Position numbers and translations under genes: made by a program. From a bacterium (GTDB taxonomy: Bacteria > Patescibacteriota > Minisyncoccia > Phycocordibacterales > UBA9973), in contig JBAXSP010000001.1 in assembly GCA_037130655.1 (NCBI GenBank), positions 37,641 to 101,640 of the forward strand: a DNA stretch of 64,000 bases. The letters are read 5' to 3'. Position 1 is the stretch's first letter; each line of letters begins with the position of its first letter. Below, piece by piece: positions 2 through 40,246 of the stretch. The notes below the pieces were generated by a model that was not told where the DNA came from, did no database searches, and saw only the letters and a program-made list of their open reading frames with translations.

Positions 2-1303
2 AAAAAATCTACCGAAGAACATCCACTCCTCATCATCGGCACACCGAGTGCGGTTTGTTTCGATAGAAATGACACCGCATATATTGTCATCGAACACGAA
101 CGTTCTCGTGCATACAAAACATTATCATATCCATATATAGACTTGCGACTAGTACTCGAAGCCTATGCGCGCAAAGCTCATATCCCGTGTATCATCGGCG
201 ACTCATTGCTTCGCACCGAAACAATTGCTGAACGTGACAACTACGGACACATCGGACAAACATCACTTCGTCTGCCAGATTTATCAGAAATCAAAATTGA
301 AAGCCTGCGTGATGAAAACGACAAATTCAGTTTGATTTCAAAACCACTCAAAAAAGCACTCGGCCGTGTACAAGAAAATAACGAACATCTTATGTTGTTT
401 GTTCCACGCAAAGGACTGGCACCGATTACGGTCTGTAATGATTGCGGGACCACTGTTCGCTGTACGGGGTGTGATGCACCGCTCGTGCTCTATATGAAAG
501 GCAAAGACAATCGTATCTATAGCTGTAATCGTTGTGGTAATACCGAAGACGCAACAAAATCTTGTACACACTGTACCGGCTGGAATTTGGTCCCACTCGG
601 CATCGGCACAGAAACAGTCAAAGAATTTTTGAGTGATAGTTGCAAAGATGTACCGATTACTATTTTGGACAAAGATCATATCAGTTCAAAAAAAGATGGG
701 CAAAAAATAATAGAAGATTTTTATGCTTCACCATGTGGTATTTTGATTGCGACCGAATATGCGATTCCACTCATGCGTCAACCAATCGACAAAATCGCCA
801 TCGTTACGATGGATACGCTTTTTTCAATTCCACATTTTCGAATGGATGAAAGTATTGTTGGACTCATCATCGCATTGTCAGAACGAGCCAAAGCACCACT
901 TCTTATTCAAACAGACAAAATAGATGCAAAACTATTGTCACACATCAAAAGCGGTAACCTGACTGGTTGGCAAAGAGAAATTGTCGACGAACGAAAAATG
1001 CTAAGCTATCCACCATTCGTACATCTGATTACGATCAGACATCAAGGAAACAAAGTAGATACACAAAAATATAAGACATTGATCGAACGAGAATTTACTG
1101 ATTACAATCCGTACATTCACACCGTAACACTTTCAAAAGTAAAAGAATTGTACGAAACAACCGTCTTGATGAAAATAAAACGCAGTGAATGGCCGTCACT
1201 GACGAATGCAAAAGAAGATTTGCGTGAATTTCCCTTTTACCAAAAAGTCCAAGCCTTTACTCCTGCATACAAAGTAGAAATCAATCCGGATAGCATATTA
1301 TAA
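2..1303 (+). CDS. priA: primosomal protein N' (PriA helicase), 5'-truncated at window edge
   Basis: Frame 2 is open from nt 2 to the stop at 1301-1303. It has the Cys-rich zinc-binding cluster (CNDCGTTVRCTGCDAPL...CNRCGN...CTHC) and the helicase C-terminal region typical of PriA. Confidence 0.85.
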   Translation, partial: KKSTEEHPLLIIGTPSAVCFDRNDTAYIVIEHERSRAYKTLSYPYIDLRLVLEAYARKAHIPCIIGDSLLRTETIAERDNYGHIGQTSLRLPDLSEIKIESLRDENDKFSLISKPLKKALGRVQENNEHLMLFVPRKGLAPITVCNDCGTTVRCTGCDAPLVLYMKGKDNRIYSCNRCGNTEDATKSCTHCTGWNLVPLGIGTETVKEFLSDSCKDVPITILDKDHISSKKDGQKIIEDFYASPCGILIATEYAIPLMRQPIDKIAIVTMDTLFSIPHFRMDESIVGLIIALSERAKAPLLIQTDKIDAKLLSHIKSGNLTGWQREIVDERKMLSYPPFVHLITIRHQGNKVDTQKYKTLIEREFTDYNPYIHTVTLSKVKELYETTVLMKIKRSEWPSLTNAKEDLREFPFYQKVQAFTPAYKVEINPDSIL

Positions 1304-1410
1304 TGACCAATTACTAATGACCGATGACCAATATTCGGAAAACACAGTCGGTTTTGCGAAGTAAAACCGACTGTGTTTTATTAGTCATTAGTCACTGGTC
1401 ACTAGTCATT
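1304..1410. repeat. inverted arrays of tandem 7-nt repeats (TGACCAA/TTAGTCA type) flanking the priA terminator hairpin
   Basis: Left arm 1304-1332 (tgaccaa ttactaa tgaccga tgaccaa), right arm 1380-1410 (ttagtca ttagtca ctggtca ctagtca). The arms are imperfect reverse complements of each other. Confidence 0.7.
1339..1379 (+). terminator. rho-independent terminator after priA (17-bp perfect stem AAAACACAGTCGGTTTT / AAAACCGACTGTGTTTT)
   Basis: Perfect inverted repeat with a 7-nt loop and flanking A/T runs, seen directly in the sequence. Confidence 0.7.
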
Positions 1411-1453
1411 ATTTTTATTTGCACAAAATCCCATTTTGTGATATAAAAATCAT

Positions 1454-1690
1454 ATGGCAATAACAAATGTTGAAATAAAGAAAAATAACAACGAGAACGG
1501 AACAAGTACTATCCGTCGCTTTACTCGTAAAATGCAAGAAACAGAAATTGTAAAACTAGTAAAATCTCGTCGTTATGCGACTCGAAAGCCCTCTAAGCTT
1601 TCACTCAAGGATGGAGCTCTTAAGAAGATTGCAAAACGTGCAGTATATCAAAAGATGCAAAAATTGGGCAAAGTCATTCCAAAAAAATAA
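1454..1690 (+). CDS. rpsU: 30S ribosomal protein S21
   Basis: 78-aa basic protein with the ...RRF.RK....EIVKLVKSRRYATRKPSKLSLKD...KR S21 signature. Confidence 0.85.
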   Translation: MAITNVEIKKNNNENGTSTIRRFTRKMQETEIVKLVKSRRYATRKPSKLSLKDGALKKIAKRAVYQKMQKLGKVIPKK

Positions 1691-1695
1691 AGACA

Positions 1696-2109
1696 ATGGA
1701 TACGATTACGACTAACAACTTAGAAGTAATACGAATGACAAAAGGCAAGCTTCCCCGCTTGCCTTTTGCTAGTTTCAAGGAAAAAATCTTGGGCAAAAAA
1801 TATTCACTCACGATTGTTTTTGCAACACCGACACATATCCAAAACCTGAACAAACAATATCGACAAAAAGAATATGTTCCAAACGTACTTGCTTTTCCAC
1901 TCGATACAAATGCTGGAGAATTATATTTGTCACTCGGCACCATTCGCAAAGAAGCACAAAAACACGACTACACATACGAACAATTCATTGCATATTTACT
2001 TATCCACGGACTTCTTCATTTGAAAGGATACGATCACGGTAGTACAATGGATAACGAAGAGAATAAATTCAAAAAATTCTTCAACGTCACAGAGAAGTCG
2101 AAAAACTAA
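1696..2109 (+). CDS. ybeY: rRNA maturation endoribonuclease YbeY
   Basis: HGLLHLKGYDH zinc-binding motif (H-x3-H-x5-H) near the C-terminus; 137 aa. Confidence 0.85.
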   Translation: MDTITTNNLEVIRMTKGKLPRLPFASFKEKILGKKYSLTIVFATPTHIQNLNKQYRQKEYVPNVLAFPLDTNAGELYLSLGTIRKEAQKHDYTYEQFIAYLLIHGLLHLKGYDHGSTMDNEENKFKKFFNVTEKSKN

Positions 2110-2164
2110 TTAACCTTTTTACAAGCAAGAATTACATCACTTTTGTAATTCCTAACAAAATCAT

Positions 2165-3328
2165 TTGATGAAGCAACTAATTGTCGGTATTGATATTGGA
2201 ACACATCTCACTCGTGTGACGGTATCCGCTACAACACGCGAAAATCCAGTACCACAGATCATTGGTTTCGGACAAGCTGAATCAAAAGGACTTCGTCACG
2301 GCTATATCGTCAATCCGCAAGATGCAACAATGAGCATCAAACAAGCGGTCTTGAATGCCGAAGAAAACACGAGTATCAAAATCAAAAAAGCTATCATTTC
2401 AATTGGTGGTATTAGTTTGTCGTCTGAATACGCAGTTGGTAGTGCTATCATCTCTCGTGCCGACAAAGAGATCTCTCCTATCGATATCAGTAATGCAATC
2501 AATGACAGTGAACAAAATTTGATTCTCACCAACAAACGTATTCTTCACCGTGTTCCGGTTGCTTACAAAGTTGATGGCAAATTGATTTCTGCGCGACCAG
2601 ATGGATTGAAAGGTATCAAACTCGAAGCAAAAGTATTGTTCGTCACTTGTTTGTCACAACACCTTGATGACTTACTTTCTGCAGTAACCAATGCTGGTAT
2701 TGAAGTAATGGACGTTGTCGCGAGTCCATTTGCAGCATCTTCTGTCACTCTTTCTTCAAAACAACGTACTGTCGGTAGTGTGCTCGTAGATATCGGATCT
2801 GAAACAGTGTCGATTGTGGTGTTTGAAAACGACATTCCTCTCACACTCCAAGTCTTCGGTATCGGCGGAGCTGAAATCACCAAAGACATTGCGCTCGGAT
2901 TCAAGATTCCATATGACGAAGCAGAAGGAATCAAAACAGGTTCTATTATGAGTGACCTGTCTCGCAAAAAATTGGATGAAATTATCCAAGCTCGACTCAC
3001 TGATATTTTTGAATTAGTCGATGCTCATTTGAAGAAAAATAAATGTAGCGGATTACTTGCGGGCGGTGCGGTGATTATGGGAGGTGGTGCACAATATCCA
3101 TACATCGAACAATTGGGCAAAGATATTTTGCGATTACCAGTCAAACTCGCTGATCCGGATATTTGGGGTAGTTCAAAAAATAGATTACGCGATTCATCGT
3201 GGTTTATCTCTGCAGGACTTTGTACTGGAATGTTTGGAAGTGGTGTAGATATGGAAGTAGACAATACTTCATTTATCCAAACAATCAAAAAGTTGTGGAA
3301 GAATGTTGTGCATCAGTTGATGCCATAA
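2165..3328 (+). CDS. ftsA: cell division protein FtsA
   Basis: Actin-like ATPase with N-terminal GIDIGT motif; 387 aa, immediately upstream of ftsZ. Confidence 0.9.
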   Translation: MMKQLIVGIDIGTHLTRVTVSATTRENPVPQIIGFGQAESKGLRHGYIVNPQDATMSIKQAVLNAEENTSIKIKKAIISIGGISLSSEYAVGSAIISRADKEISPIDISNAINDSEQNLILTNKRILHRVPVAYKVDGKLISARPDGLKGIKLEAKVLFVTCLSQHLDDLLSAVTNAGIEVMDVVASPFAASSVTLSSKQRTVGSVLVDIGSETVSIVVFENDIPLTLQVFGIGGAEITKDIALGFKIPYDEAEGIKTGSIMSDLSRKKLDEIIQARLTDIFELVDAHLKKNKCSGLLAGGAVIMGGGAQYPYIEQLGKDILRLPVKLADPDIWGSSKNRLRDSSWFISAGLCTGMFGSGVDMEVDNTSFIQTIKKLWKNVVHQLMP

Positions 3329-3519: not shown

Positions 3520-4719
3520 ATGCCTAGACTAAACCCAGACGTAGAATCATTCATCCGAATCAAAGTGATCGGTGTTGGTGGTTCTGGAAAAAACGCATTG
3601 AACCATATGATCAATTCCAAAATCAAAGGAGTTGACTTCATTGCGATGAACACTGATACCCAAGACCTTCACAACTCACTCGCTGAAGCCAAAATTCATA
3701 TCGGGAAAAACTTGACCAAAGGACAAGGTGCCGGAATGAATCCAGATGTTGGACGCCGAGCAGCCGAAGAAACCAAAGCTGAAATTCAAGATGTCATCAA
3801 AGGTGCACATATGGTATTTATCGCTTCTGGTATGGGAGGTGGAACCGGAACAGGCGCAGCACCAATCGTTGCAAAAGCAGCAAAAGAACAGGGCATTCTC
3901 ACTGTGGCTGTTGTCACAAAACCATTTTCATTCGAAGGTAATCAAAGAATGAGACTCGCAGAACAAGGTATTGCAGAACTCGAAAAAGAAGTTGATGCAA
4001 TCATTGTTATTCCAAACGACCGATTGCTTTCAATCGCTTCAAAAGATATGGGATTCAAACAAGCATTTGCTATGTGTGATGAAGTGCTTCGACAAGCAGT
4101 TGAAGGTATTTCTGACCTCATTACAATTCCTGGTCAATTGAACCTCGACTTCGCTGATATCTGTGCAGTCCTTCGTGACGCAGGAACAGCACTCATTGGT
4201 GTTGGTACTGCTGGTGGTGAAGACCGCGCACGCAAAGCCGCACTTGATGCGATCAATTCCCCACTCCTTGATATTTCTATCAACGGTGCACGTGGTGTAT
4301 TGCTTTCTATTGCAGGTGGCGACGATCTAGGAATTCTCGAAATCAATGAGGCAGCCAAAATCGTTACTGAATCTGTCGACAAAGATGCGAAAGTTATCTT
4401 CGGTACAACATTTGATGATCGTTTGAAAAAAGGCGAAATCAAAATCACTGTCATCGCAACTGGTTTTCCAGTAGACACTCCTCGCAAATCTTTGTTTGAA
4501 AGAAATGCAAGTCCTGTGCAACAACAGCAACAACCTGTTCAAAAAGTAGAACAACGTACAGAAAGTACTTTCCCTATCAAAAAAGAAATTCACGAAACAG
4601 CTCCAACAGAAGGACTTCTTCGCAAAGCAGACAATGAAATTCCAACAGAAGAAACTGATGAAATCACTGACGAAGATGACTGGGGAACAATTCCAGCATT
4701 TCTCCGAAGAAAGAAGTAG
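3520..4719 (+). CDS. ftsZ: cell division GTPase FtsZ
   Basis: GVGGSGKNA N-terminal motif and GMGGGTGTGAAP tubulin signature; acidic C-terminal tail. Confidence 0.95.
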   Translation: MPRLNPDVESFIRIKVIGVGGSGKNALNHMINSKIKGVDFIAMNTDTQDLHNSLAEAKIHIGKNLTKGQGAGMNPDVGRRAAEETKAEIQDVIKGAHMVFIASGMGGGTGTGAAPIVAKAAKEQGILTVAVVTKPFSFEGNQRMRLAEQGIAELEKEVDAIIVIPNDRLLSIASKDMGFKQAFAMCDEVLRQAVEGISDLITIPGQLNLDFADICAVLRDAGTALIGVGTAGGEDRARKAALDAINSPLLDISINGARGVLLSIAGGDDLGILEINEAAKIVTESVDKDAKVIFGTTFDDRLKKGEIKITVIATGFPVDTPRKSLFERNASPVQQQQQPVQKVEQRTESTFPIKKEIHETAPTEGLLRKADNEIPTEETDEITDEDDWGTIPAFLRRKK

Positions 4720-4720
4720 A

Positions 4721-4842
4721 AGCTAGCTACTAGCATTTAGCTTCTAGCGACTAGCTAAAACAAAAAGAGCGACAACCGAAGGTTGTCGCTCTTTTTGTTT
4801 CGATACACTAGCAACTAGTCACTAGAAACTAGAACCTAAAAA
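4721..4842. repeat. CTAG-type tandem heptamer arrays flanking the ftsZ terminator
   Basis: Left arm agctagc tactagc atttagc ttctagc gactagc. Right arm acactagcaactagtcactagaaactagaacctaaa, which is nearly identical to 50238-50272. Confidence 0.7.
4757..4800 (+). terminator. terminator after ftsZ (20-bp perfect stem AAACAAAAAGAGCGACAACC / GGTTGTCGCTCTTTTTGTTT)
   Basis: Perfect inverted repeat seen directly. Flanked by heptamer-repeat arms at 4721-4755 and 4806-4842. Confidence 0.75.
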
Positions 4843-4863
4843 TTTCGTGCTATAATTTTTTCT

Positions 4864-6522: not shown

Positions 6523-6597
6523 GGCCCCATCGTCTAATGGTTAGGACAACGGGTTTTCAATCCGTTAACCGGAGTTCGACTCTCCGTGGGGTCACCA
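6523..6597 (+). tRNA. tRNA-Glu (anticodon TTC), CCA encoded
   Basis: Hand-folded cloverleaf: acceptor GGCCCCA/TGGGGTC, anticodon stem ACGGG/TCCGT, anticodon loop TTTTCAA, T-loop TTCGACT, 3' CCA. Confidence 0.9.
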
Positions 6598-6633
6598 CGA
6601 CAAAAAATCCCAACTGCTTGGGATTTTTTGCTA

Positions 6634-6760
6634 CGTGGTGAAGGCGCAGTGTTGCGTTTTGGAGCACTACGACAAAATGCCACGAGCCGGGGTCGCGAAC
6701 ACTTATGTCCACGCAGTTTACAGAGTAAACGAGTAGACTTAGTGATTCGTGACACAACAG
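6634..6760 (+). ncRNA. tRNA-3'-linked conserved structured element, copy A (putative ncRNA or tRNA 3'-trailer RNA; function unknown)
   Basis: Homologous to 16671-16840 and 46590-46757 (minus). Shares the blocks UACGA(C/U), GAGCCGGGGUCGCGA and ACUUAGU.AUUCGUGAC. The CGAACAC/GUGAUUCG helix shows compensatory changes relative to the other copies. Confidence 0.45.
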
Positions 6761-6804
6761 ATAAAAAAGAGTAGAATTACTTTTATAAAATTATTTTTAG
6801 AAAA

Positions 6805-7452
6805 ATGAGTCCAACAGAAGTATTTAAATCAATAGGATCTTTAAAAATATCTCACCCTTTTCGAGATATTATTGTTCTTATATATGGCATCGGCGCAATT
6901 TTAATATTTCAATATTTATCTATTTTTCAAACATCTGATTATATTCCTAAAAATTTAAATAGAATAGAGTTTGATTTATTTTTTTTAGTTATCGGGTTTA
7001 TTTTAGGTAAACTACTACTAATAATAAGTGATTTAATTTTTTCTATTGAATCAAAAATATTAAGACTACTTTCATCAAACCCCAAAATAGATAAAAAAAC
7101 CTTAAGTAGTCTAAAAATAAACATATTTCGTATTTTAAATAATTTTTTGATTGACAAAAAATATGAAAATATTAGACAAACAGATGTTGAGCACGAAATT
7201 ACAATAGCTGATAAAGCCGAATTAATTCAAAAATATCCTGATTTACACCATGAGTCAGAAAGAATTATTTATTTATTATTTTTTATAAGAATTGCAGTAG
7301 CTGTAACTTTGTTTATCTCCTTTTTTTATTCCTGGAAATTTATTTACTTATTTTTAATCTTTCTGTTGATTTGGCATAAAAACAAAAATGAGCTTATTTA
7401 TAATGATCATTTAATGTATAGATCTATTGTAAAGTCTAAAATAGTAAAATAA
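6805..7452 (+). CDS. hypothetical integral membrane protein (very AT-rich gene)
   Basis: 215-aa ORF with multiple hydrophobic segments. Local composition is markedly more AT-rich than the flanking genes. Confidence 0.45.
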   Translation: MSPTEVFKSIGSLKISHPFRDIIVLIYGIGAILIFQYLSIFQTSDYIPKNLNRIEFDLFFLVIGFILGKLLLIISDLIFSIESKILRLLSSNPKIDKKTLSSLKINIFRILNNFLIDKKYENIRQTDVEHEITIADKAELIQKYPDLHHESERIIYLLFFIRIAVAVTLFISFFYSWKFIYLFLIFLLIWHKNKNELIYNDHLMYRSIVKSKIVK

Positions 7453-15942: not shown

Positions 15943-16347
15943 ATGAAAACCTCCACACTCCACATATTGCTGGCAGTATTCTCGTTTTTTATTACCTTGT
16001 CTTTTTCACAAGTTAAAAAACAAGTTTCGTTCACACCTGAAAAATTCGAAGCAATACTCTTCGATAGTTCGGATGAGCACTTTAGTGCTGAAATAGTCCT
16101 TGATCCATTGAGAGACAGATATATCATACTGATCGAAGGTGTTGGCACAAAAACAAAAGAAGCCAAAGCCACATTCGAACATTTCCTTGAAACAGGAATA
16201 AAAGATATGATCGTCACAATCAACTCAAAAGAAAAAATTAGTGTCTGGAAAGTTATCCGCGAAACTAAAAAACCGCAAACATCTTCTGGACGTATTACTC
16301 CTGAAATGATGCAATTGTTATTCAGTGGCCCTTGGAGCCACAACTAA
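15943..16347 (+). CDS. hypothetical secreted protein
   Basis: 134 aa with an N-terminal signal-like hydrophobic segment. Terminator at 16347-16376. Confidence 0.5.
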   Translation: MKTSTLHILLAVFSFFITLSFSQVKKQVSFTPEKFEAILFDSSDEHFSAEIVLDPLRDRYIILIEGVGTKTKEAKATFEHFLETGIKDMIVTINSKEKISVWKVIRETKKPQTSSGRITPEMMQLLFSGPWSHN

Positions 16348-16442
16348 TCCCCTAACTCAATCGGGGATTTTTTTTATTTCACCTAGTATACCAGAAGAGC
16401 CATTCTGATGAATGAGCAGTGTGTGTGTCGGATAAACCTATA

Positions 16443-16471
16443 TTGAAAAAATGGAACAAATAAGCTATAAT
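16443..16471 (+). promoter_or_regulatory. consensus sigma70 promoter (TTGAAA-17 nt-TATAAT) upstream of tRNA-Phe
   Basis: -35 TTGAAA at 16443-16448, a 17-nt spacer, then -10 TATAAT at 16466-16471. Read directly from the sequence. Confidence 0.6.
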
Positions 16472-16564
16472 CAAAAAAGTGCATATATTGCTTGGATAGT
16501 TATTTTGGTAGGTATACGCAACGGAAAAAATCTGATATTATTGAAACCATTGAAATACACATAT

Positions 16565-16640
16565 GCTTGGATAGCTCAGTTGGTAGAGCGCTCCCCTGAA
16601 GAGGGATAGGTCCCCAGTTCGAGCCTGGGTCCAAGCACCA
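16565..16640 (+). tRNA. tRNA-Phe (anticodon GAA), CCA encoded
   Basis: Acceptor GCTTGGA/TCCAAGC, D-arm GCTC-AGTTGGTA-GAGC, anticodon loop CTGAAGA, T-arm CCCAG-TTCGAGC-CTGGG, 3' ACCA. Confidence 0.9.
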
Positions 16641-16670
16641 TATAAAAACCACGGAATTCCCGTGGTTTTT

Positions 16671-16840
16671 ATATGGTGCTTGGAAAGTAAATGAACTGCT
16701 TCATTTACGACAGACTCGAAAGACGGAGACATGGTTTTCGTTAGAAAACAGTCGAGTCGGGGTCGAGAGTACTTAGCAGAATTCGAACAAAGTGAAGAAT
16801 TCTAGTTAGTAACTCGTGACCGAGCCTGGGTTCCAAGCAC
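16671..16840 (+). ncRNA. tRNA-3'-linked conserved structured element, copy B
   Basis: Blocks UUACGAC, GAGUCGGGGUCGAGAGUACUUAG and UUAGUAACUCGUGAC. Terminal helix GUGCUUGGAA/UUCCAAGCAC. Ends with an 18/19-nt copy of the tRNA-Phe 3' end. Confidence 0.45.
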
Positions 16841-16847
16841 AAATAAT

Positions 16848-16871
16848 AAAACCTCCGATATCGGAGGTTTT
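16848..16871. terminator. bidirectional terminator (AAAACCTCCGATATCGGAGGTTTT)
   Basis: Perfect hairpin with an A-run and a T-run, between element B and the convergent gene 16877..17194. Confidence 0.7.
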
Positions 16872-16876
16872 ATTAT

Positions 16877-17194
16877 TTATTTATACAAATCGATCAGTGA
16901 TTTCAAATGATTGACATCAGGAATACCCCCAGTACCCACACCTGTTCCACCGGTATACAAATTGAGTAAACTACCCAAATATGGCTGTAAGAAGTAGAAA
17001 GAGCCGAATCCGAGACCGATAATTACAATCCAGTAAAAAATTCTAGTAATTTGTGCGATTTGTTGTCCTCGTCGTACTTTACGAACAATGACCGTATTTT
17101 CTTTTATCAATCCGATTAATTCGTCAATTTTTTGAGACAAATCATTATTTGAATTATTTTGACCATTTAGTTGATTTTGTAAATTTGGTTCCAT
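16877..17194 (-). CDS. hypothetical small membrane protein (Q/N-rich N-terminus, Gly-rich C-terminus)
   Basis: 105-aa ORF with one TM segment. Confidence 0.45.
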   Translation of the reverse strand: MEPNLQNQLNGQNNSNNDLSQKIDELIGLIKENTVIVRKVRRGQQIAQITRIFYWIVIIGLGFGSFYFLQPYLGSLLNLYTGGTGVGTGGIPDVNHLKSLIDLYK

Positions 17195-17597: not shown

Positions 17598-17677
17598 AAT
17601 ATTTATTAGTTAATGCCTATATAATCATATTATACACCTGATTATTTAAAAATAAAAATAGTTAATTCTTCTTACTA

Positions 17678-17709
17678 TTTAGTCATTAGTAATTGGTCAT
17701 TAGTCATTA
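17678..17709. repeat. tandem heptamer array (tttagtc attagta attggtc attagtc att)
   Basis: Same TAGTCAT repeat family as at 1380-1410, directly abutting the stop of 17714..18100. Confidence 0.65.
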
Positions 17710-17713
17710 TTTT

Positions 17714-18100
17714 CTATTTTTTCTTTCCAAAAACCTTTTTGAGAAAACCGACAAACGCATTATCTTTTTCAGTCACCGGTGTAGGCAATGGTTCATCAAC
17801 AATCATAATCACTTTCTCACCCTCTTTTGCTACTGGATAATGCTCACGGATCACTGTCTCAACACCTCTATCTGTATTCAAATCTCCTAATGTTTTTCGG
17901 AGTTCAATTTCGTGTTTTTGCAAATCGGCATATTCAGCCTCAGATGCACGTTTATTGGAAATAGCCAGTGACATCTTACCCAACACATCAATCACTGAGA
18001 GTAATAAAAGAATTGTAATAACGATACAAAAAACAAGCACTGGTGTCTTCAAAAAAAAGGATTGTACTGGCTTTTTGTGTTGTTGCATTCTTTCATCCAT
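17714..18100 (-). CDS. septum formation initiator family protein (FtsB/DivIC-like)
   Basis: Single N-terminal TM, a coiled-coil segment and the C-terminal IREHYPVAKEGEKVI motif typical of FtsB/DivIC. Confidence 0.6.
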   Translation of the reverse strand: MDERMQQHKKPVQSFFLKTPVLVFCIVITILLLLSVIDVLGKMSLAISNKRASEAEYADLQKHEIELRKTLGDLNTDRGVETVIREHYPVAKEGEKVIMIVDEPLPTPVTEKDNAFVGFLKKVFGKKK

Positions 18101-28080: not shown

Positions 28081-28686
28081 ATGCAAAAACCAATGGAGTA
28101 CAACACAAAAAGTGGACAACGAATTGAAGTTCTTGCAATTCGTGCGACACGTTGGATTGGCTCTGTTTCTTCTATCGTATTTCACACAATTATCTTCATT
28201 CTTTGTTTCGTATTAATTCTCCTTGGCGCACCGACAGACAAAGTATTACTGACACTGACGACCATTGTCTCACTTGAAGCGATTTACCTCTCAATCTTTA
28301 TTCAAATGTCAGTCAATCGTTCAAACAGACGGTTGGTCGCTGTTCGTAAAGACTTGGAAGACATTCAAGAAGGAGTGGAAGAAATCGGGGAAGACATCGA
28401 ACACATTGAAGAAGATATTGGAGAAATCCAAAAAGACGTCGAAGAAATTCAAGGTGAAGTCGGAGAAATTAGTGATGACATTGAAGACATTCAGGAAGAC
28501 GTCAAAGAACTCGGCGAAGAAGTCGAAGACATCGGAGAAGAAATGGATGAAGATGACGAAGAAGGCAAGGCTCGCGATGCGATGATTATGGCAAAAATGG
28601 AAGTGAAGCTCGAAGAGTTACTCCAAGAAATTGCTGTCCTCAAAGAACAAACTGCAAAGAAAAAACCAACAAAGAAATCTGAATAA
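28081..28686 (+). CDS. DUF1003-like membrane protein with an acidic tandem-repeat domain
   Basis: N-terminal RIEVLAIRATRWIGSVSSIVFHTIIFILCFVLILL resembles the DUF1003 core. It is followed by degenerate ~9-10-aa acidic repeats (EDIQEGVEEIGEDIEHIEEDIGEIQKDVEEIQGEVGEISDDIEDIQEDVKELGEEVEDIGEE). Confidence 0.55.
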   Translation: MQKPMEYNTKSGQRIEVLAIRATRWIGSVSSIVFHTIIFILCFVLILLGAPTDKVLLTLTTIVSLEAIYLSIFIQMSVNRSNRRLVAVRKDLEDIQEGVEEIGEDIEHIEEDIGEIQKDVEEIQGEVGEISDDIEDIQEDVKELGEEVEDIGEEMDEDDEEGKARDAMIMAKMEVKLEELLQEIAVLKEQTAKKKPTKKSE

Positions 28687-32732: not shown

Positions 32733-33503
32733 TTATTTTTTTAATTCAACACACATAAACATCGGAAATTCCTTACGAGCAACGTCTTCTGCAGATTTCC
32801 GTGGACCAATTCCACTTTCTTTGTGAGAAATCCATTCTTCAAGACCGACAACTGAAAGTCCGGTCTTTTTGAATAATTTGAAATACCATTGCAGTGGTCG
32901 GTGATACGACGTTGTGGTAATTTTCTTAGCTGTTTTTTGTCCAGGATGAGCATCAATCGCGTACGCAACCTCTTTCATATACAAATCAGTTCTTCGGTAT
33001 TGCACTTTTTTTGCTTCGTCATATCCCCAGTCACTATCTTTTGGAATACGGAAACATGGATGCATCAGTACGATATGCAAACTACCACCATCTATCAATA
33101 CACGTTTTGCTTCAGTGAGCACACCGAGCACGTTATCCATATTTTCAAGTGCAAGTACGATTACCGCTTTATCTTGTGATAAATCTGTCACACCCGACAT
33201 TTTGTCAGCACTGTGAATCAAATACTTGATATCTGTAGACTTTTCTTTTGCAGTAGCAATGAGCGATTTTGAACTATCAATACCAACAACTTGTGCGCCA
33301 CTGAGTGCAAACAATCGACTAAAATATCCTTGCCCACAAGCAATATCAACAATTCTATCTCCTTTCTTGGGACTCAAAAGGCGAATCAAGTTCGGAGCAA
33401 TAACTTTTGCTTGCAAAGTGTCTTCACTTTTTTCTAGATAATCATCGTACCAAGTAGAAACCTTTTCCCATGAAGTATCTTTTTTGTAATTTTTATTAGT
33501 CAT
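32733..33503 (-). CDS. class I SAM-dependent methyltransferase
   Basis: Motif I VDIACGQGYFS, and post-I acidic residue motif VVGIDSS. Confidence 0.75.
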   Translation of the reverse strand: MTNKNYKKDTSWEKVSTWYDDYLEKSEDTLQAKVIAPNLIRLLSPKKGDRIVDIACGQGYFSRLFALSGAQVVGIDSSKSLIATAKEKSTDIKYLIHSADKMSGVTDLSQDKAVIVLALENMDNVLGVLTEAKRVLIDGGSLHIVLMHPCFRIPKDSDWGYDEAKKVQYRRTDLYMKEVAYAIDAHPGQKTAKKITTTSYHRPLQWYFKLFKKTGLSVVGLEEWISHKESGIGPRKSAEDVARKEFPMFMCVELKK

Positions 33504-33530
33504 TGGTCATTAGTAATTAGTCATTACTTA
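33496..33530. repeat. tandem heptamer array (cattggt cattagt aattagt cattact)
   Basis: TAGTCAT family. Spans the methyltransferase start codon and the ndh stop codon. Confidence 0.6.
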
Positions 33531-34750
33531 TTATATTCTTTCAAATTATTTTCCTTTCGATACTTGCGTCCATCTAACCAAAGCCCTATAACCTTACCAA
33601 ATGGCATCCAGCCAGCAAAAAACTTCAAATCGATAACATGTCTCATAAAATATGCAAAACGTCCGTACAGCTTAAATTTGCCCATAGAAAAGACCGCCCA
33701 ATTATCTCCGATTGGAATCGCATATCCAACAGACTGTGCCTTGTATTCTTTGTATGACTTATTGCGAAGTGAATTATTGATCACAGTTGCAACATATGTA
33801 CCATCAAACATCGCTGTTTGTGCGAGTCCTGTGTATTGTGTCTGAGCACAGTCACCAACAATAAAGATTTCTCGGTGCGCCGGCACCCGAAGATATTCAT
33901 CAACAACAACTCTTCTTCGTGGAGAAAGTTCGACACCCGACATACTACTTGCCAATGAATTTATTTTTGTCCCCGCAGTCCAAATGACTGTCTTTGCTTT
34001 CATTGACATATCTCTAAGATAGACTTGCTCAACATCTTCTTTCATCAAGGTACGATTCAAGAAAATATTCACCCCCATACTTTGTAATTTCTTCAATACT
34101 TTTGCAGAAACATCAGCTGGTAATGATGGTAATACTTTTCCGGCCCCTTCAATCAAATCAACGGTCACCAGTGACGGGTCAACTTTCATTTTTCGAGCAA
34201 TACGCTTCATGAATGACACAATGTCACCTGCAATTTCAACTCCTGACGGACCAGCACCAACAATAACGACATGGTAATGCGACACACGTTCTTCTTCACT
34301 TGGATGCATATGTTCTTCAAACAATCCATAAATATGATTTTTGATTCGAAGTGCATCATTGGTTGATTTGAAAGAAAACGCCAACTCAGACACACCAGGA
34401 ATATCAAAATAGTTTGCTTCACTGCCGAGTGCAAAAACCAAATTGTCATAGTGATACACAATACCGTCTTGCCCGTGAACCTCTTTGTTTTCTGGAACGA
34501 TTTTTGTCACCACATCTTTCATTATTTTTACCCGCTCTGGAAGGACATCTTCAAGGGGTACACAAACCTCAATCGGAGAAGCGCAAGTCACCACACGATA
34601 AAGCGCTGGGTAATACTCAAAGTATGATTTATTTGAAATAAGAATAATTTCTGCAAAACTAGGTGCCTTTTTCGCCAGTTCTCGAGCACAAGAAATACCA
34701 GCGAATCCCCCACCAATAATGACAATTTTATGTTTTTTCTCTGAATTCAT
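33524..34750 (-). CDS. ndh: type II NADH:quinone oxidoreductase (NDH-2) / FAD-dependent pyridine nucleotide-disulfide oxidoreductase
   Basis: KIVIIGGGFAG FAD-binding fold, and a second GAGPSGVE NAD(P)-binding fold. Confidence 0.8.
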   Translation of the reverse strand: MNSEKKHKIVIIGGGFAGISCARELAKKAPSFAEIILISNKSYFEYYPALYRVVTCASPIEVCVPLEDVLPERVKIMKDVVTKIVPENKEVHGQDGIVYHYDNLVFALGSEANYFDIPGVSELAFSFKSTNDALRIKNHIYGLFEEHMHPSEEERVSHYHVVIVGAGPSGVEIAGDIVSFMKRIARKMKVDPSLVTVDLIEGAGKVLPSLPADVSAKVLKKLQSMGVNIFLNRTLMKEDVEQVYLRDMSMKAKTVIWTAGTKINSLASSMSGVELSPRRRVVVDEYLRVPAHREIFIVGDCAQTQYTGLAQTAMFDGTYVATVINNSLRNKSYKEYKAQSVGYAIPIGDNWAVFSMGKFKLYGRFAYFMRHVIDLKFFAGWMPFGKVIGLWLDGRKYRKENNLKEYNK

Positions 34751-37581: not shown

Positions 37582-39567
37582 CTATTCATCCAAAAGTTTA
37601 CGGAGAACATCTTCTGGAACTTCTTTGTTTGTATCACTTTTTTGCGACTCTTTTTTCTCATCAGCAACATGAGGAGTTATCGGTCTTGCTGGAGCTGGAG
37701 CCGGTGCCGGTTTTGGAGCTTGCGATTTCGAAGCTTCCCCTTGTGCACTGTGCGAGACTTTCATCAATGCTTCTTTGAGTGAAGAAACTTTTTCAGCCGA
37801 AGCTGATTTGTCTTTTGTTAGTGATGAAAGTGAGAGTCCTTTTTTAGGTTCATCTTCTTTGTTGTTGATATTTCTTTCAAGCTCATCAACACCTTCTAAT
37901 TCACGAAGGATGTGGTGCATTTTTGAAGAAAAAGTATTTTTTTGAACAACAGGTTGCGGTGTTACTTCTTTTTGTATGACTTGTTCTGGTGCTCGATATG
38001 CTGTTTTTTTCTGTTCAAATACTTTCTTTTCAATTGTTTGCAGTACTTCTTTGACTGCTTGTTTTTCAGGTAAAATATTTTTGAAAGCTTCTTTAATTTT
38101 ATTTACCGGAGCAGGGAAGTTTGGTTTTTGGTTTTGAGTACCTGCATTTGTTGGTCCTTTTGTAGTGTAACTAGATGGGGAAGTCGGTTTAAATGAAGAC
38201 GATTGTTCTTTTGTATTCCCTGCTGGAGAAAATTTTTCTTTTTGAGAAAAATCGCCTTCTTTTTTACGTTCTGGAGCCTTTGTGGCTTCGAGAGAAATAC
38301 CAATTGCCTTTTCAACTTCTGCACGAGGTTTTGCGTACTGCTCTCTCGAACGTTCAATTACCCTATCCCTGTATGGTTGTGGCTCATTGACCGGCAAAAT
38401 AGTTCGAGCTGAAAACGGACGTGATTCTTGCCCATCAATCATCAAGCGAAGATATACTTGTGCGAAGCCCAGGTTCACCAAATCTTGATTCACAAACACT
38501 GGTGAGAATTGTTTTTCAAAAATATCAGCATCATCGGGGCCAATACGGAACGAAATCATCGTTCCAACGTTACCCAAAATAGCATCGCGAACTTCTTCAG
38601 TCATCTGTGCGACATATTGATTCGCAACAGTTAGTGCCAATTTGTATTTTCGAGATTCAGACAAAATTTGTGCAAATGCTTCGTTGGCAAAGTTTTGAAA
38701 TTCGTCCACATAGAAATAAAATGGCGCGGCTTTGTCCAATTGATCGCGACTCATTTCTGCGCGTTCCATCGCAGCCAAATAGATTTTGGTAATAATCGTA
38801 CCACCCAAAAGACTCATACTTTGCTCACCAATACGTCCTTTTGAAAGGTTAGCGATGAAGATTTTTTTCTTATCCATGATTTCTCGGAAATCGAACGATG
38901 ACGTTGGTTGTCCGATAATATTTCGAATAACTGGATTGGTAGTGAATTGTCCAATTTTGTTTTGAATCGCAGGTGTAGCTTCTTGAGCAAAACGGTCCGT
39001 ATATTTAGCAAATTCATCTACCCAAAAAGACTTCACCGCAGGGTCAGTGATGTGCGCGACAACTTGATTACGAAATTCTTTATCGGCAAACATTTTGTTG
39101 ATGAGCATCAACGTTGAACCCGGGTATTCGAGCAGTGCCAAAATCGTATTGTTCAGCATGTGTTCCATACGAGCAGAGAAAGAGTCTGGCCAAATCTTTT
39201 TGAAGGTACTCATGAGTCCTGATGCGACCAAGTGACGTTTGTCTGGGCCAATATTTTCCATGACATTGAAGGCGATTGGATATTCCAAATCAAACGGCGC
39301 AAAATACACCACATCATCAATACGGTGTGCAGGAATATATTCCAAAATTCGTTCCGCGAAAGAACCGTGAGGGTCAATAATTGCAAGCCCTTCGCCATTG
39401 TTCACGTCTTGGATTGCCAACGTTTCAAGGAGTGTTGATTTTCCAGTTCCAGTTTTTCCAATGATGTACGTGTGACGTGCACGATCTTTTTCTTTGATAC
39501 CAAAACGAACATTGCGATTGCGATGATCGGTTTCTCCAAAGTATGTGATGTGAGGATTTTCTGCCAT
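37582..39567 (-). CDS. TraD/VirD4-family (type IV coupling protein-like) P-loop ATPase with ~250-aa disordered K/P/E/S-rich C-terminal tail
   Basis: Walker A IIGKTGTGKSTLL...IDPHG, and Walker B/TraG-D_C-like FYVDEFQNF...ESRKYKLALTVANQ. Start moved to MAENPHITY. Confidence 0.65.
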   Translation of the reverse strand: MAENPHITYFGETDHRNRNVRFGIKEKDRARHTYIIGKTGTGKSTLLETLAIQDVNNGEGLAIIDPHGSFAERILEYIPAHRIDDVVYFAPFDLEYPIAFNVMENIGPDKRHLVASGLMSTFKKIWPDSFSARMEHMLNNTILALLEYPGSTLMLINKMFADKEFRNQVVAHITDPAVKSFWVDEFAKYTDRFAQEATPAIQNKIGQFTTNPVIRNIIGQPTSSFDFREIMDKKKIFIANLSKGRIGEQSMSLLGGTIITKIYLAAMERAEMSRDQLDKAAPFYFYVDEFQNFANEAFAQILSESRKYKLALTVANQYVAQMTEEVRDAILGNVGTMISFRIGPDDADIFEKQFSPVFVNQDLVNLGFAQVYLRLMIDGQESRPFSARTILPVNEPQPYRDRVIERSREQYAKPRAEVEKAIGISLEATKAPERKKEGDFSQKEKFSPAGNTKEQSSSFKPTSPSSYTTKGPTNAGTQNQKPNFPAPVNKIKEAFKNILPEKQAVKEVLQTIEKKVFEQKKTAYRAPEQVIQKEVTPQPVVQKNTFSSKMHHILRELEGVDELERNINNKEDEPKKGLSLSSLTKDKSASAEKVSSLKEALMKVSHSAQGEASKSQAPKPAPAPAPARPITPHVADEKKESQKSDTNKEVPEDVLRKLLDE

Positions 39568-39652
39568 ATTGATTACAGTATAGCAAGAAGTATGAGGATA
39601 AAGTATGAGGATAAAAAACTCTCTATTAAAATAGAGAGTTACATTCGATTTA

Positions 39653-40246
39653 CTATTTAATTTTGTACAGATCAAACTGTATAATAGCTTGAACCATTTC
39701 GTGATTTACAAAATGTTCTTTCTTATGAAAAGAATATTTTCTAGAGTCCTCCTTACTAATTCCGTTCAATACCATAAAATCAGTCCCGGCAACCTTCATT
39801 GCCCAATCATCCATATCGATAGTTGAAGGAAATGGTTCAGTAAAAGCATCTTTGATAACTATTTGATGTGTAGGTCCATTAACTTGATTGCCGGCATTTG
39901 GAGAAAGGCGTGAAAAATCTATACAAAAGGCATTTAAATTATTATCCTTCATATACTTATTTCTCAGATTAACATACTTGGCCGGAGCCTCTCGAAACAT
40001 TTTTTTCTGAAAAGCCTGCCATACAGCAAACAGTTCTTTGGTTTTTATTTTCTTTTCATCTGACAAAACTTCATAATTTCCATCAATAATCCGAGAAATA
40101 AAATCACGATTTTTCTGTTCTTGAACCTTTTCTTCTTGATCAATATCGGCAAGATTCTGCTTCTTGTTTTTGTTTTTAATATATAAAAAATGTATTAAAA
40201 TCCATAATAATACAGCACCGCCGACTATGTACACTAAAATATCCAT
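39653..40246 (-). CDS. hypothetical membrane-anchored protein (first gene of the TraD-like operon)
   Basis: 197 aa with an N-terminal TM segment; co-directional and tightly spaced with the next two genes. Confidence 0.5.
   Translation of the reverse strand: MDILVYIVGGAVLLWILIHFLYIKNKNKKQNLADIDQEEKVQEQKNRDFISRIIDGNYEVLSDEKKIKTKELFAVWQAFQKKMFREAPAKYVNLRNKYMKDNNLNAFCIDFSRLSPNAGNQVNGPTHQIVIKDAFTEPFPSTIDMDDWAMKVAGTDFMVLNGISKEDSRKYSFHKKEHFVNHEMVQAIIQFDLYKIK

Follow-up and report, generated by a model that had tools for sequence, protein, structure and literature searches.

Copy B and the tRNA genes of the window

The window (the whole 64,000-nt stretch of contig JBAXSP010000001.1 that was analysed) contains exactly three copies, A, B and C, of a structured element recognised by covariance model R1. 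Copy B lies behind the gene for tRNA-Phe. From 5' to 3' it consists of X, which is the last 21 nt of the tRNA gene, a terminator-like hairpin, an antisense segment (antiX), a conserved core of ~105 nt with two arms (P2 and P3) and the 3' terminus GTGAC, and X'. The covariance model match over the core extends from 16718 to 16822 (95.7 bits). The mapped features of copy B are as follows.

16565..16640, + strand: tRNA-Phe(GAA), host gene of copy B (ARAGORN; Rfam tRNA model 64.6 bits)
16620-16640, + strand: X, tRNA-Phe positions 56-76 with the CCA encoded (direct repeat D1)
16630..16684, + strand: 25-bp palindrome, 100% complementary, arms 16630-16654 and 16660-16684, loop AATTC (inverted repeat I1)
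16674..16684, + strand: antiX part 1, TGGTGCTTGGA, reverse complement of tRNA-Phe positions 66-76 (repeats; family-wide pattern)
16687..16708, + strand: hairpin P1a, GTAAATGAA / CTGC / TTCATTTAC, which splits antiX (inverted repeat I5; relatives)
16709..16720, + strand: antiX part 2, GACAGACTCGAA, complement of tRNA positions 54-65 at 9/12 (sequence; family pattern)
16722..16758, + strand: arm P2, GAC-GGA-GAC ... GTC-GA-GTC, whose 3x2 internal loop is conserved and whose tip varies (covariance model; covariation)
16759..16820, + strand: junction GGG and arm P3 (GTCGAGAGTACTTAG ... hairpin ... TTAGTAACTCGTGAC), with the terminus GTGAC as the right junction
16821..16840, + strand: X', displaced copy of tRNA-Phe positions 56-74, CGAGCCTGGGTTCCAAGCAC, 18/19 (direct repeat D1)
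16841..16878, + strand: second terminator-like hairpin, a perfect 19-bp palindrome (inverted repeat I2)

The left arm of the 25-bp palindrome comprises the acceptor 3' strand of the tRNA, the CCA and one arm of the terminator-like hairpin, and the palindrome as a whole is the distal portion of a stem, P1. The loop of P1a, AACTGCTT, is not confined to copy B: the copy A hairpin and many relatives have it too. The final two bases of antiX part 2 pair with T54 and T55, immediately 5' of the duplication boundary. P3 contains an invariant G.T/U pair. X' stands directly 3' of GTGAC, as it does family-wide, and has one extra T and no CCA. The hairpin behind it is read as the native trailer of tRNA-Phe, and X as cassette-borne.

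The original prediction described copy B as a conserved interior framed by tRNA-Phe ends, and these matches are real: the 5' acceptor strand of the tRNA is repeated at 10/11 positions (16564-16574 vs. 16677-16687) and its 3' end at 18/19, as direct repeat D1. The 3' match had been placed at 16822-16840; it begins one base earlier, at 16821, and includes one inserted T. Pairing between the two ends, also predicted, was recovered over 10 bp in the minimum-free-energy fold (z = -6.8 against shuffles). The 5' segment, with GGTGCTTGGAA at 16675-16685, had been taken for a copy of the tRNA 5' acceptor, but is better described as the reverse complement of the tRNA 3' end including CCA, within a 25-nt inverted repeat. 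It is followed by P1a and then by the second antisense piece, which matches the complement of the T-loop and T-stem.

Copies A and C have the same parts, behind two other tRNA genes.

6594..6790, + strand: copy A, behind tRNA-Glu (6523-6597) (covariance model 75.5 bits)
6593|6594, + strand: copy A junction, tRNA position 72|73; X = ACCACGAC... with CCA
6601-6630, + strand: copy A hairpin, loop CTGC
6634-6641, + strand: copy A antiX, CGTGGTGA
6639-6753, + strand: copy A core
6754 onward, + strand: copy A X', ACAACAGATAAAAAAG
46593..46817, - strand: copy C, behind tRNA-Asn (46870-46798) (covariance model 76.2 bits)
46796-46761, - strand: copy C hairpin
46759-46752, - strand: copy C antiX, GCTCCCCG
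46750-46729, - strand: copy C hairpin P1a
46726-46715, - strand: copy C antiX, GTAGGGATCGAA
46717-46602, - strand: copy C core
46601-46593, - strand: copy C X', CGATCCCTA, truncated (9 nt)

The tRNA-Asn ends reported earlier for copy C correspond to GCTCCCCG and CGATCCCTA. Within the window, CCA is encoded by tRNA-Glu (copy A) and tRNA-Phe (copy B) and not by tRNA-Asn (copy C), and it is absent from the native ends of the Val and Arg tRNAs and from the relic X' of both Phe and Glu. The CCA-bearing ends of the Glu and Phe tRNAs are read as cassette-borne. The ftsZ gene of the window is itself an empty site.

Family members and their target-matched ends

The core pattern matched at least 120 genome loci, nearly all from Patescibacteria or Paceibacteria, and the covariance model search that the original prediction had proposed recovered the three window copies and 149 copies in 100 Patescibacteria loci. 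Of 128 cores, 95 lie on the same strand as a tRNA, of whatever identity, and 80-310 nt 3' of it. The hosts of this one core include 40+ tRNA species, tmRNA (confirmed by Rfam in L065 and L086), ftsZ, rpsI, and rplB, and X, antiX and X' of each copy match its own upstream host gene. The terminal matches thus track the neighbouring gene and the core stays constant, which separates the two signals and argues against an intrinsic tRNA likeness of the element.

Searches against Rfam, at gathering threshold for the window and eight loci and at E <= 10 for positions 16300-17000, matched only tRNA and tmRNA; weaker matches (SpF25, Phe_leader and similar) are terminator look-alikes under their gathering scores. 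ARAGORN and the Rfam tRNA model (E <= 10) found the true tRNA-Phe only, the 3' copy in copy B starting at C56, in the middle of the T-loop. Literature searches on Patescibacteria RNA motifs, on ribozymes and on the exact core strings gave nothing relevant to the element. This is a small, gene-less cassette family, widespread in Patescibacteria and undescribed, with no Rfam family or literature match. At least three unrelated core families have the antiX/X' architecture in common.

At tRNA loci, X' copies positions 56-73, starting directly after GTGAC, and antiX is complementary to positions 73 to 54. For the 95 tRNA-linked members, the longest exact match to the 3' end of their own tRNA has a median length of 9 nt, inverted and direct alike, compared to 5 nt for the tRNAs of other members; a full 19-nt direct copy is present in 12 loci, against a control maximum of 11 nt. 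The target-matched repeats are therefore far above chance. Over the 12 bp adjoining the junction, antiX pairs with the upstream gene end at 91% Watson-Crick (56 loci), and its reach is X plus exactly two more gene bases, a rule that applies at ftsZ, rpsI and rplB as well as at tRNAs of three junction classes. Both junctions keep a fixed distance to the conserved core, and no nucleotides are conserved at the left junction. The flanking gene-derived repeats are 9-47 nt long, and the target differs at every locus. In all five protein-gene cases, joining the gene to X' past GTGAC preserves the frame and gives an identical C-terminus, with only synonymous differences in the X' of ftsZ. Among T-loop-class tRNA loci, ~60% have an X' that is shortened or degraded, copies B (the extra base) and C (9 nt) among them, and the same is seen in inner units of arrays.

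In 38 of 40 loci the trailers behind X and X' are unrelated. One subclass has a conserved CGTTAAGAAAA...TTTTTTAG hairpin in different genomes, and together these findings suggest that the hairpin moves along with the element. L021 and L005 have identical hairpins behind X and X' (over 47 nt and > 76 nt, respectively); these look like target duplication or gene conversion rather than a foreign hairpin.

Insertion history, core fold and candidate enzymes

Occupancy differs among relatives. The ftsZ-trxB spacer is 0-23 nt long in some and holds up to ~1.2 kb of elements in others, with family cores only where it is at least 300 nt, and one and the same isoacceptor tRNA can carry an element in one genome and lack it in another. 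Two pairs of loci allowed the history of X to be compared with that of its host gene. In L156/L181, the 500 nt of ftsZ 5' of the junction are 90% identical (29 of 100 codons differ), while identity within X drops to 66%, with synonymous changes in 10 of 13 codons; 3' of the array, the alignment again shows clear conservation of the flanks. In the second near-identical pair, L142/L235, identity is 0.89 upstream and 0.71 in X. In both pairs, the greater divergence of X from the remainder of ftsZ is purely synonymous. Genome pairs without a core have no identity drop at the gene end. X thus has a history separate from that of the host gene, i.e., it is element-borne, although these are the only two testable pairs.

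Arrays of two or three units with decaying distal copies occur at several places. In L010, the order is ftsZ with an intact X, core, intact X', core, and a frameshifted X''; 10 of the 12 codons of X' are changed, synonymously. The X' of ftsZ in L088 is intact too, differing only synonymously, although related genomes have a related element; either a recent insertion or selection acting on X' would be required to explain this.

For copy B, near-identical strains with occupied and empty alleles were not found: matches to both flanking proteins came from one sample only, and contigs are interrupted at the element. In metagenomes, the empty tRNA-Phe site that would be predicted had no match. No closely related occupied/empty allele pair was found, nor was an excision junction observed. 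Copies in the same genome are 48-85% identical (the best pair 85%), and with none near-identical, recent transposition is not demonstrated. The nearest-neighbour core has the same target in just 5 of 68 cases; cores do not cluster by target, and any signal for clustering by target or genome is weak, which fits poorly with an X-antiX-core combination that is fixed and moves to no other target. GC skew gave no clear switch.

The core has a conserved secondary structure that is supported by covariation beyond controls. In the aligned fold 96.1% of cells are paired, with 386 double-change cells compared to 117 +/- 11 in shuffles (0 of 500 shuffles equal this) and just 14 single-side changes. The covariation score is 0.465, against 0.133 +/- 0.007 for shuffles and <= 0.09 for slid controls, and covarying pairs include 6:77, 11:73 and 12:72 in arm P2. 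Folds are also much more stable than shuffles (z = -6.8, -6.9 and -3.1), and the top strand folds ~8 kcal/mol better than the bottom strand. Several statistics, the scarcity of single-side changes among them, hint that the folded molecule is single-stranded DNA rather than RNA. Outside the one invariant pair, G-U use in the variable stems has no strand asymmetry (tRNA control, 211 vs. 78). Loops include 42 C(GNA)G triloops, three GNRA and no UNCG, and GCGNAGC occurs 49 times in 9.8 kb, compared to ~2.4 expected; as DNA this motif is an extraordinarily stable mini-hairpin, but as RNA it is far less stable (PMC13037366).

The ~200 bp unit has no ORF and no integrase of its own. Among the 66 window ORFs, Pfam searches turned up neither a recombinase or transposase nor an HUH protein or reverse transcriptase. 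Scanning 3106 ORF-like stretches from 120 loci (0.9 Mb) for motifs yielded two Xer-like proteins and one DGR reverse transcriptase (in L049, unrelated to the element), none of them enriched, and no convincing HUH ORF. The window also encodes three Avd-like proteins, for which no homologue turned up close to another element. Around the elements examined, no transposase came to light, and group II introns appear to be absent from the phylum Patescibacteria.

Interpretation and related systems

Taken together, copy B is probably an ORF-less integrative cassette that carries a replacement gene end, with the native end displaced and an attL/attR-like frame around the insert. The tRNA-Phe frame would then be made up of antiX and of two sequences forming an attL/attR-like pair, X (16620-16640) and X' (16821-16840). 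Of the possibilities raised originally, attL/attR-like remnants of a tiny tRNA-targeting element came closest to the evidence: the 3' copy would be a displaced gene end and the upstream copy part of the insert, but the element is neither tRNA-specific, since the same core is found at tmRNA, ftsZ, rpsI and rplB ends, nor a mere remnant, since the core is strongly conserved and covarying.

The integrated unit, [X - terminator-like hairpin - antiX - P2 - P3...GTGAC], would be a cassette of ~150-250 bp inserted as a whole within a gene 3' end. X would replace the terminal segment of the gene, leaving it intact and with a terminator gained, and the native segment, X', would be shifted 3' of GTGAC and then decay. 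AntiX, X and two further gene bases would form the long hairpin P1, abutting the conserved core, and the core would take the shape of a three-way junction, with single-stranded DNA the most likely form. A recombinase or transposase acting in trans may read the antiX/X hairpin as a target copy or guide. Strand exchange, on the left at N-1|X and on the right at GTGAC|X', would give seamless insertion and excision as well as repeated insertion at the rebuilt gene end, by which the arrays would be explained. A broader proposal, put forward tentatively, is that such cassettes may form a programmable ORF-less class with at least three core families, in which a single-stranded DNA three-way junction is inserted into and excised from essential-gene 3' ends seamlessly by a trans-acting enzyme, the target being set by antiX/X and the gene provided with a spare end.

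Flanking direct repeats, with junctions in the T-loop (55|56) or the acceptor 3' end (70|71, 72|73), might also be left by larger integrase islands or prophages, the units being scars or satellites that are not mobile themselves and the core an attP-arm region remaining after loss of cargo. Tyrosine integrases use matching sublocations in tRNA and tmRNA genes, and there is a precedent for synonymously diverged replacement ends in phage 21 and e14 in icd. However, none of the 149 copies has a cargo-bearing full-length form, 2.9 million viral contigs gave no core-pattern match, there are just two Xer-like recombinases in 0.9 Mb, and one core for dozens of targets is not expected of integrase-specific attP arms. 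With the antiX/X' architecture shared by several unrelated core families as well, such an origin is improbable. An event at the tRNA itself, in which a tandem tRNA-Phe duplicate degenerated and had its D and anticodon arms replaced, would account for the presence of both a 7-nt 5' acceptor string and a 19-nt 3' end. It was among the original suggestions and can now hardly be maintained: the 5' string belongs to the inverted repeat antisense to the tRNA 3' end including CCA, tRNA models give no score, and the non-tRNA hosts refute it, as a core with matched ends and the same architecture is also found behind tmRNA and protein genes.

Two further explanations place the function in RNA. A structured non-coding RNA or 3'-UTR module serving the host, with a closing stem that co-evolves with the gene end or was copied from it, could be a stabiliser, an RNase P/Z processing signal (through the acceptor-like stem) or a protein-binding RNA. 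It would fit a core conserved and covarying across the whole class, always behind the gene and on its strand, with a fold far more stable than shuffles and better on the top strand, and it would fit the failure to find a mobility enzyme. It leaves unexplained why antiX pairs best with the functional gene end and with two bases beyond the repeat, a pairing that would unfold the tRNA, and also the coding-preserving copies at protein genes, the arrays with decaying distal copies, the patchy presence at syntenic sites and the excess divergence of X. In addition, a terminator-like hairpin separates the gene from the core, there is no space for a promoter, and T-loop and CCA are absent; this explanation is considered unlikely. 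The more specific form proposed originally, an RNA presenting a tRNA-like acceptor/T-arm end, is not supported either: copy B has no T-loop and no T-stem 5' strand, its X' lacks CCA and has an extra base, most relatives have a shortened or degraded X', and the stem and loop statistics are more DNA-like. The other RNA-level explanation is 3'-end replacement, with antiX-core-X' as a cis- or trans-splicing ribozyme or intron. AntiX would be an internal guide spanning the junction (2 nt of 5' exon plus 3' exon), the core would catalyse the reaction or bring in an enzyme, and X' would serve as the 3' exon joined to the body of the gene. Trans-splicing group I ribozymes have the same order of guide, core and 3' exon. 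The fixed distances of both junctions from the core are in keeping with this, and the preservation of frame and peptide in X', with synonymous changes in ftsZ, is what would be expected if X' were translated. Group I introns are abundant in Patescibacteria (PMC13011429), the ones described there being anticodon-loop introns and not elements of the copy B type. On the other side, the host gene is already complete unspliced, many copies of X' are truncated or decayed, no Rfam intron or ribozyme model matched even at E <= 10, the left junction lacks conserved nucleotides, and the core is just ~105 nt. The loop types and missing G-U intermediates speak against an RNA fold, and the sharp drop in identity at the L156/L181 junction shows a DNA-level exchange. 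Splicing is an improbable account.

Some other models were dropped on particular observations: snap-back copying from the terminator because the antiX of the L097 ftsZ copy spans only the start of X, simple target-site duplication because of the differing trailers and the separate history of X, and a DGR VR/TR pair because the differences are not adenine-specific. Kink-turn, hammerhead and hairpin ribozyme cores did not fit the sequences on inspection, and the geometry does not fit an archaeal bulge-helix-bulge intron.

The integrative cassette reading can be compared with several known systems. Gene-3'-end integrative elements (P4-like islands, and phage 21 and e14 in icd) are alike in the direct repeats of the gene's terminal segment that flank the insert, in junctions in the T-loop or acceptor 3' end, in tandem stacking at the rebuilt site, and in a replacement end that keeps the gene intact and may differ synonymously from the displaced one. 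The cassettes have the terminal-segment repeats around the insert and a gene restored by the proximal copy, as is characteristic of integrative elements. They differ from P4-like islands and phages in being 150-250 bp long with no integrase or ORF, in having an antisense target copy that forms a long hairpin with the target, and in a single core, a covarying three-way junction, that serves dozens of targets.

Integron attC sites and the CTX-phi attP(+) site used by XerCD are also variable-sequence hairpins of conserved geometry with a crossover near the stem base and strand-specific structure; in CTX-phi the hairpin rebuilds a duplex copy of the chromosomal site, and in arrays the newest unit adjoins the rebuilt site. 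The cassettes have neither the RYYYAAC/GTTRRRY boxes (P1 of copies A-C was read) nor a dif-like site. Their targets are gene ends of many sequences, and the conserved part is a separate two-arm core instead of the hairpin. There is also no platform as in integrons, and no integron integrase was found by Pfam in the window or by motif scans in the 120 loci.

IS200/IS605 elements and the ORF-less PATEs have strand-specific hairpin ends, internal base-pairing guides for the cleavage sites, seamless excision and insertion, and non-autonomous copies mobilised in trans. Their guides are 4 nt long and their target is a fixed tetra- or pentanucleotide, with no flanking repeats or replacement gene end, unlike the cassettes, around which Y1 transposase was not found (window and 120 loci). 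The bridge and seek RNAs of IS110/IS1111 and the guides of group I and II introns are similar in that a guide within the element spans the crossover, pairs with both sides and is in principle reprogrammable. The cassettes have no adjacent recombinase gene or ORF as IS110 does. Their guide is fully complementary to an element-borne target, giving a helix where bridge RNAs have an internal loop; the internal loops that are present are invariant and 3x2 nt, and the statistics favour DNA. Compared to introns and ribozymes, there is no detectable catalytic core (Rfam at gathering threshold and at E <= 10), and the host gene is complete upstream.

Viral TLS, mascRNA and the tRNA-like domain of tmRNA share with copy B a closing helix of acceptor stem and T stem sequence, but T-loop, D-arm and CCA are missing from copy B, and the likeness is absent at protein-gene hosts. 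The tRNA likeness of copy B is a by-product of target duplication. A MITE is also a poor match, as the ends of the cassettes are not inverted repeats of each other, the repeats are gene-derived (9-47 nt), and same-genome copies are well diverged.

For annotation, these elements account for structured inserts of 0.2-1.2 kb, devoid of genes, that follow many Patescibacteria genes for tRNA, tmRNA and housekeeping functions, are unnamed in databases and break assemblies. If confirmed, they would be among the smallest integrative elements known. They protect the host gene by bringing its last codons or the acceptor/T-arm strand, and they hold an antisense copy of the target beside a conserved folded core, a single core for dozens of targets; these features point to a guide-type choice of target by a candidate trans-acting enzyme. 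Should the guide really determine the target, the smallest bacterial genomes would contain a natural DNA-insertion system that can be retargeted. For the tRNA genes of these bacteria, it means that the 3' ends, encoded CCA included, can be swapped horizontally with the remainder of the gene untouched.

Copy B and its element family

Copy B, behind tRNA-Phe, is one of three family members in the window; copies A and C lie behind tRNA-Glu and tRNA-Asn. In the layout below, X is the host gene's terminal segment, antiX an antisense copy of it, and X' a displaced sense copy.

Features of copy B
16565-16640: tRNA-Phe(GAA), found by ARAGORN and the Rfam tRNA model
first item 3' of tRNA-Phe: terminator-like hairpin
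16674-16684: TGGTGCTTGGA, antiX piece following the first hairpin
16687-16708: 9-bp hairpin between the two antiX pieces
16709-16720: GACAGACTCGAA, complement of tRNA-Phe positions 54-65 (9/12)
16718-16822: conserved core
16821-16840: CGAGCCTGGGTTCCAAGCAC, X', direct repeat of tRNA-Phe positions 56-74 with one extra T
16841-16878: second terminator-like hairpin

All of the strings cited for copy B in the original prediction are present in the sequence. The heptamer taken there as a copy of the 5' acceptor strand does lie inside TGGTGCTTGGA, but is better read as part of a perfect 25-nt inverted repeat found by repeat search (arms 16630-16654 and 16660-16684), in which one arm includes TGGTGCTTGGA and the other consists of the 3' acceptor strand of the tRNA itself with CCA. 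This pairing with the tRNA 3' end, together with the GACAGACTCGAA complement, indicates that the element contains an antisense copy of the 21-23 nt at the tRNA 3' terminus, interrupted by a hairpin, with the sense copy at the far end. The region folds well above shuffled sequences (z = -6.8).

A motif common to copies A, B and C (CGAGYCGGGGTCGMGARYACTTA ... TTAGTRAYTCGTGAC) yielded a pattern matching at least 120 loci in the genome collection; among the matches listed, nearly all are from Patescibacteria, in Paceibacteria/Parcubacteria lineages. The same pattern had no matches in viral contigs, no Rfam family matches the element, and a literature search found no mention of the core motif. The core is a two-arm fold (P2 and P3) of about 105 nt, drawn here from an alignment of 84 cores, in which P2 has an invariant 3x2 internal loop and P3 an invariant G.U/T pair, with GTGAC at its end. 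Paired cells account for 96.1%, and double-sided changes number 386, against 117 ± 11 in shuffles (reached in none of 500); slid controls collapse. With the covariance model, the window has exactly three hits (B 95.7, C 76.2, A 75.5 bits) and the first 100 loci have 149, tandem arrays of two or three being frequent in the latter. At least two further, unrelated core families with the same antiX ... X' layout are located in the same arrays (L008, L028, L099, L020 downstream, and L005 at oriented positions 7160-7320). One starts GCCCGATTGAG ... CCAATTGGGGTACTG and has a small hairpin; the second spans about 160 nt, with the 3' end ACTCATGAC.

Other repeats are also found in the window. Three paralogous small genes of 118-121 aa (49861-50226, 57032-57388 and 60007-60363, all on the minus strand) belong to the 23S-rRNA-intervening-sequence/Avd-like four-helix-bundle family (PF05635, E ~1e-35). 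The first two are directly downstream of frr and of a UPF0160/MYG1-family gene, respectively, and are repeated at the DNA level as well (repeat families D4 and D6); none of the Avd-like genes of the window has a reverse transcriptase nearby. Arrays of short TAGTCATTAGT/CTAGC-type repeats recur between genes (1365-1417, 17663-17715, 33487-33539, 4720-4760 and 4800-4835) and adjoin terminators and gene starts. A 21-nt unit occurs seven times in frame at 28343-28572, within an ORF (28081-28686) encoding an acidic, coiled-coil-like product with only weak Pfam matches.

Element ends and the host gene

A tRNA gene lies 80-310 nt upstream on the same strand in 95 of 128 cores, with essentially every tRNA identity represented. 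In the commonest class, X' directly follows GTGAC and duplicates the stretch of the adjoining tRNA that runs from C56 through the discriminator (complete, at 19 nt, in 12 loci), and antiX is complementary to the tRNA from position 73 back to position 54. Matches to an element's own tRNA have a median length of 9 nt, compared to 5 nt for the tRNAs of other loci. The boundary falls at 70|71 or 72|73 in further classes, one of which includes copy A (X = ACCACGAC..., X' = ACAACAGAT...). Cores are also found 3' of tmRNA, confirmed by Rfam, and downstream of the stop-codon regions of ftsZ, rpsI and rplB. For the junctions that could be mapped exactly (three tRNA classes, ftsZ, rpsI and rplB), the pairing of antiX covers X and extends by exactly two bases beyond the repeat boundary on its upstream side, and P2 comes immediately after antiX; in a few loci of the T-loop class the extension reaches a third base. 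The right boundary is always directly after GTGAC. Since the ends match tRNAs of any identity, tmRNA and protein genes, the tRNA likeness of copy B belongs to the target and not to the element. The earlier interpretation holds in part: its attL/attR-like suggestion survives, while a tRNA mimic and degenerate tandem tRNAs do not.

Evidence for a probable insertion with a replacement gene end

Comparison of the 181 tRNAs in the fetched loci shows isoacceptors that hold an element in certain genomes and lack one in others. The ftsZ gene of the window (3520-4863) ends DDWGTIPAFLRRKK*, followed only by a terminator-like hairpin and then trxB, and relatives have one to several cassettes at this site (L010, L088, L097 and 13-17 metagenome loci). 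In a metagenome scan for the ftsZ C-terminus (120 loci), the trxB start was locatable in 85; synteny is kept in these, with spacers as short as 0-23 nt and as long as ~1.2 kb, and cores of the family are confined to spacers of at least 300 nt. In each of the five protein-gene cases, a fusion of the gene with the X' that follows GTGAC is in frame and has the same C-terminus. The ftsZ X and X' copies have synonymous differences only (2, 10 and 11 nt of 36); in L010, with two tandem units, the proximal and middle gene-end copies are intact and the distal one is frameshifted.

X has evolved apart from the rest of the gene in two pairs of close relatives. In the pair L156/L181, ftsZ identity over the 500 nt preceding the junction is 90% (29 of 100 codons changed), while X is just 66% identical, with 10 of 13 codons different and the peptide unchanged; beyond the insert, the alignment shows a clearly conserved downstream flank. 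A second pair has identities of 0.89 upstream and 0.71 in X, and pairs without a core show no such drop. Trailers following X and X' are unrelated in 38 of 40 loci, and a recognisably conserved hairpin is common to one subclass across different genomes; the hairpin after X thus appears, from these comparisons, to be part of the insert. CCA is encoded by the tRNA-Glu and tRNA-Phe of copies A and B and not by the tRNA-Asn of copy C, and is also absent from tRNA-Val, tRNA-Arg and the relic X' of Phe and Glu; the ends of tRNA-Glu, -Phe and -Asn are read as cassette-borne. The combined evidence fits placement of a unit X-hairpin-antiX-P2-P3 at N-1|X', with N-1|X and GTGAC|X' as left and right junctions, and copy B is probably an insertion cassette carrying a replacement gene end.

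Fold, possible mechanism and relation to known systems

Three statistics lean towards DNA as the form in which the fold matters. Covarying pairs are Watson-Crick swaps nearly without G-U intermediates (14 single-side versus 386 double-side cells). Outside the one invariant pair, G-U pairs number 52 in both sense and antisense, while tRNAs from the same loci give 211 and 78. Terminal loops are mainly triloops (42 C(GNA)G, 3 GNRA, no UNCG), and GCGNAGC occurs 49 times in 9.8 kb, with ~2.4 expected. GCGNAGC is an extraordinarily stable DNA mini-hairpin, much less stable as RNA (PMC13037366). The sense strand folds better than the antisense (-43.7 versus -35.9 kcal/mol), so the structure is strand-specific, and a single-stranded DNA form of the sense strand would fit. 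Precedents for single-stranded DNA include integron attC sites, the CTX-phi attachment hairpin and IS200/IS605 ends. A hairpin with a CTGC loop (AACTGCTT) recurs in the window (6614-6617, 16696-16699) and at many loci, including L008, L017, L032 and L099, in varying roles: it is the terminator-like hairpin in copy A and splits antiX in copy B. The conserved CTG in its loop may recall primase start sites on single-stranded DNA.

In a single-stranded-DNA guide mechanism, proposed with much lower confidence than the cassette reading, a trans-acting enzyme would bind the conserved three-way junction, with the antiX/X hairpin serving as its internal copy of, or guide to, the target, and would exchange strands at the two fixed junctions; the outcome would be seamless insertion, excision, and re-insertion at a rebuilt gene end. 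Several observations weaken this proposal: neither the window nor the surroundings of 120 elements yielded a candidate enzyme, no identical copies were found within one genome, cores are not clustered by target, and an occupied/empty allele pair within one species was sought and not found. Identical hairpins on both sides of a core (L005, oriented 6920-7160, where antiX is also identical, and L021, oriented 4055-4285) and a duplication of the whole unit in L238 point to local duplication or gene conversion, and insertion of a foreign unit alone does not account for them. The intact X' at the L088 ftsZ needs either recent insertion or selection on X', which keeps in play an account at the RNA level or by reversible excision. 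A TrwB/TraG-like type IV coupling-protein homologue is encoded in the window (37582-39675, minus strand; PF10412, E = 1e-8); such a DNA-transfer ATPase could matter for element spread. In L049, a diversity-generating retroelement (340-2341, minus strand), with a reverse transcriptase split over two ORFs and a pilin-like target gene, adjoins an occupied tRNA-Glu and is judged coincidental.

The behavior of the cassettes is that of integrative elements targeting gene 3' ends, such as phage 21 or e14 in icd and islands in tRNA genes, but the unit is 200 bp and gene-less. By the membership tests it does not belong with tRNA-like structures, integrase-bearing islands (it lacks an integrase), IS200/IS605/PATE, integron cassettes, bridge RNAs, introns and ribozymes, or MITEs. 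Copy B is therefore filed as an integrative element with a replacement gene end. That the family forms a new class of guide-bearing, ORF-less cassettes is a tentative suggestion, on the doubtful side; the interest of the family lies in its being abundant and unannotated.
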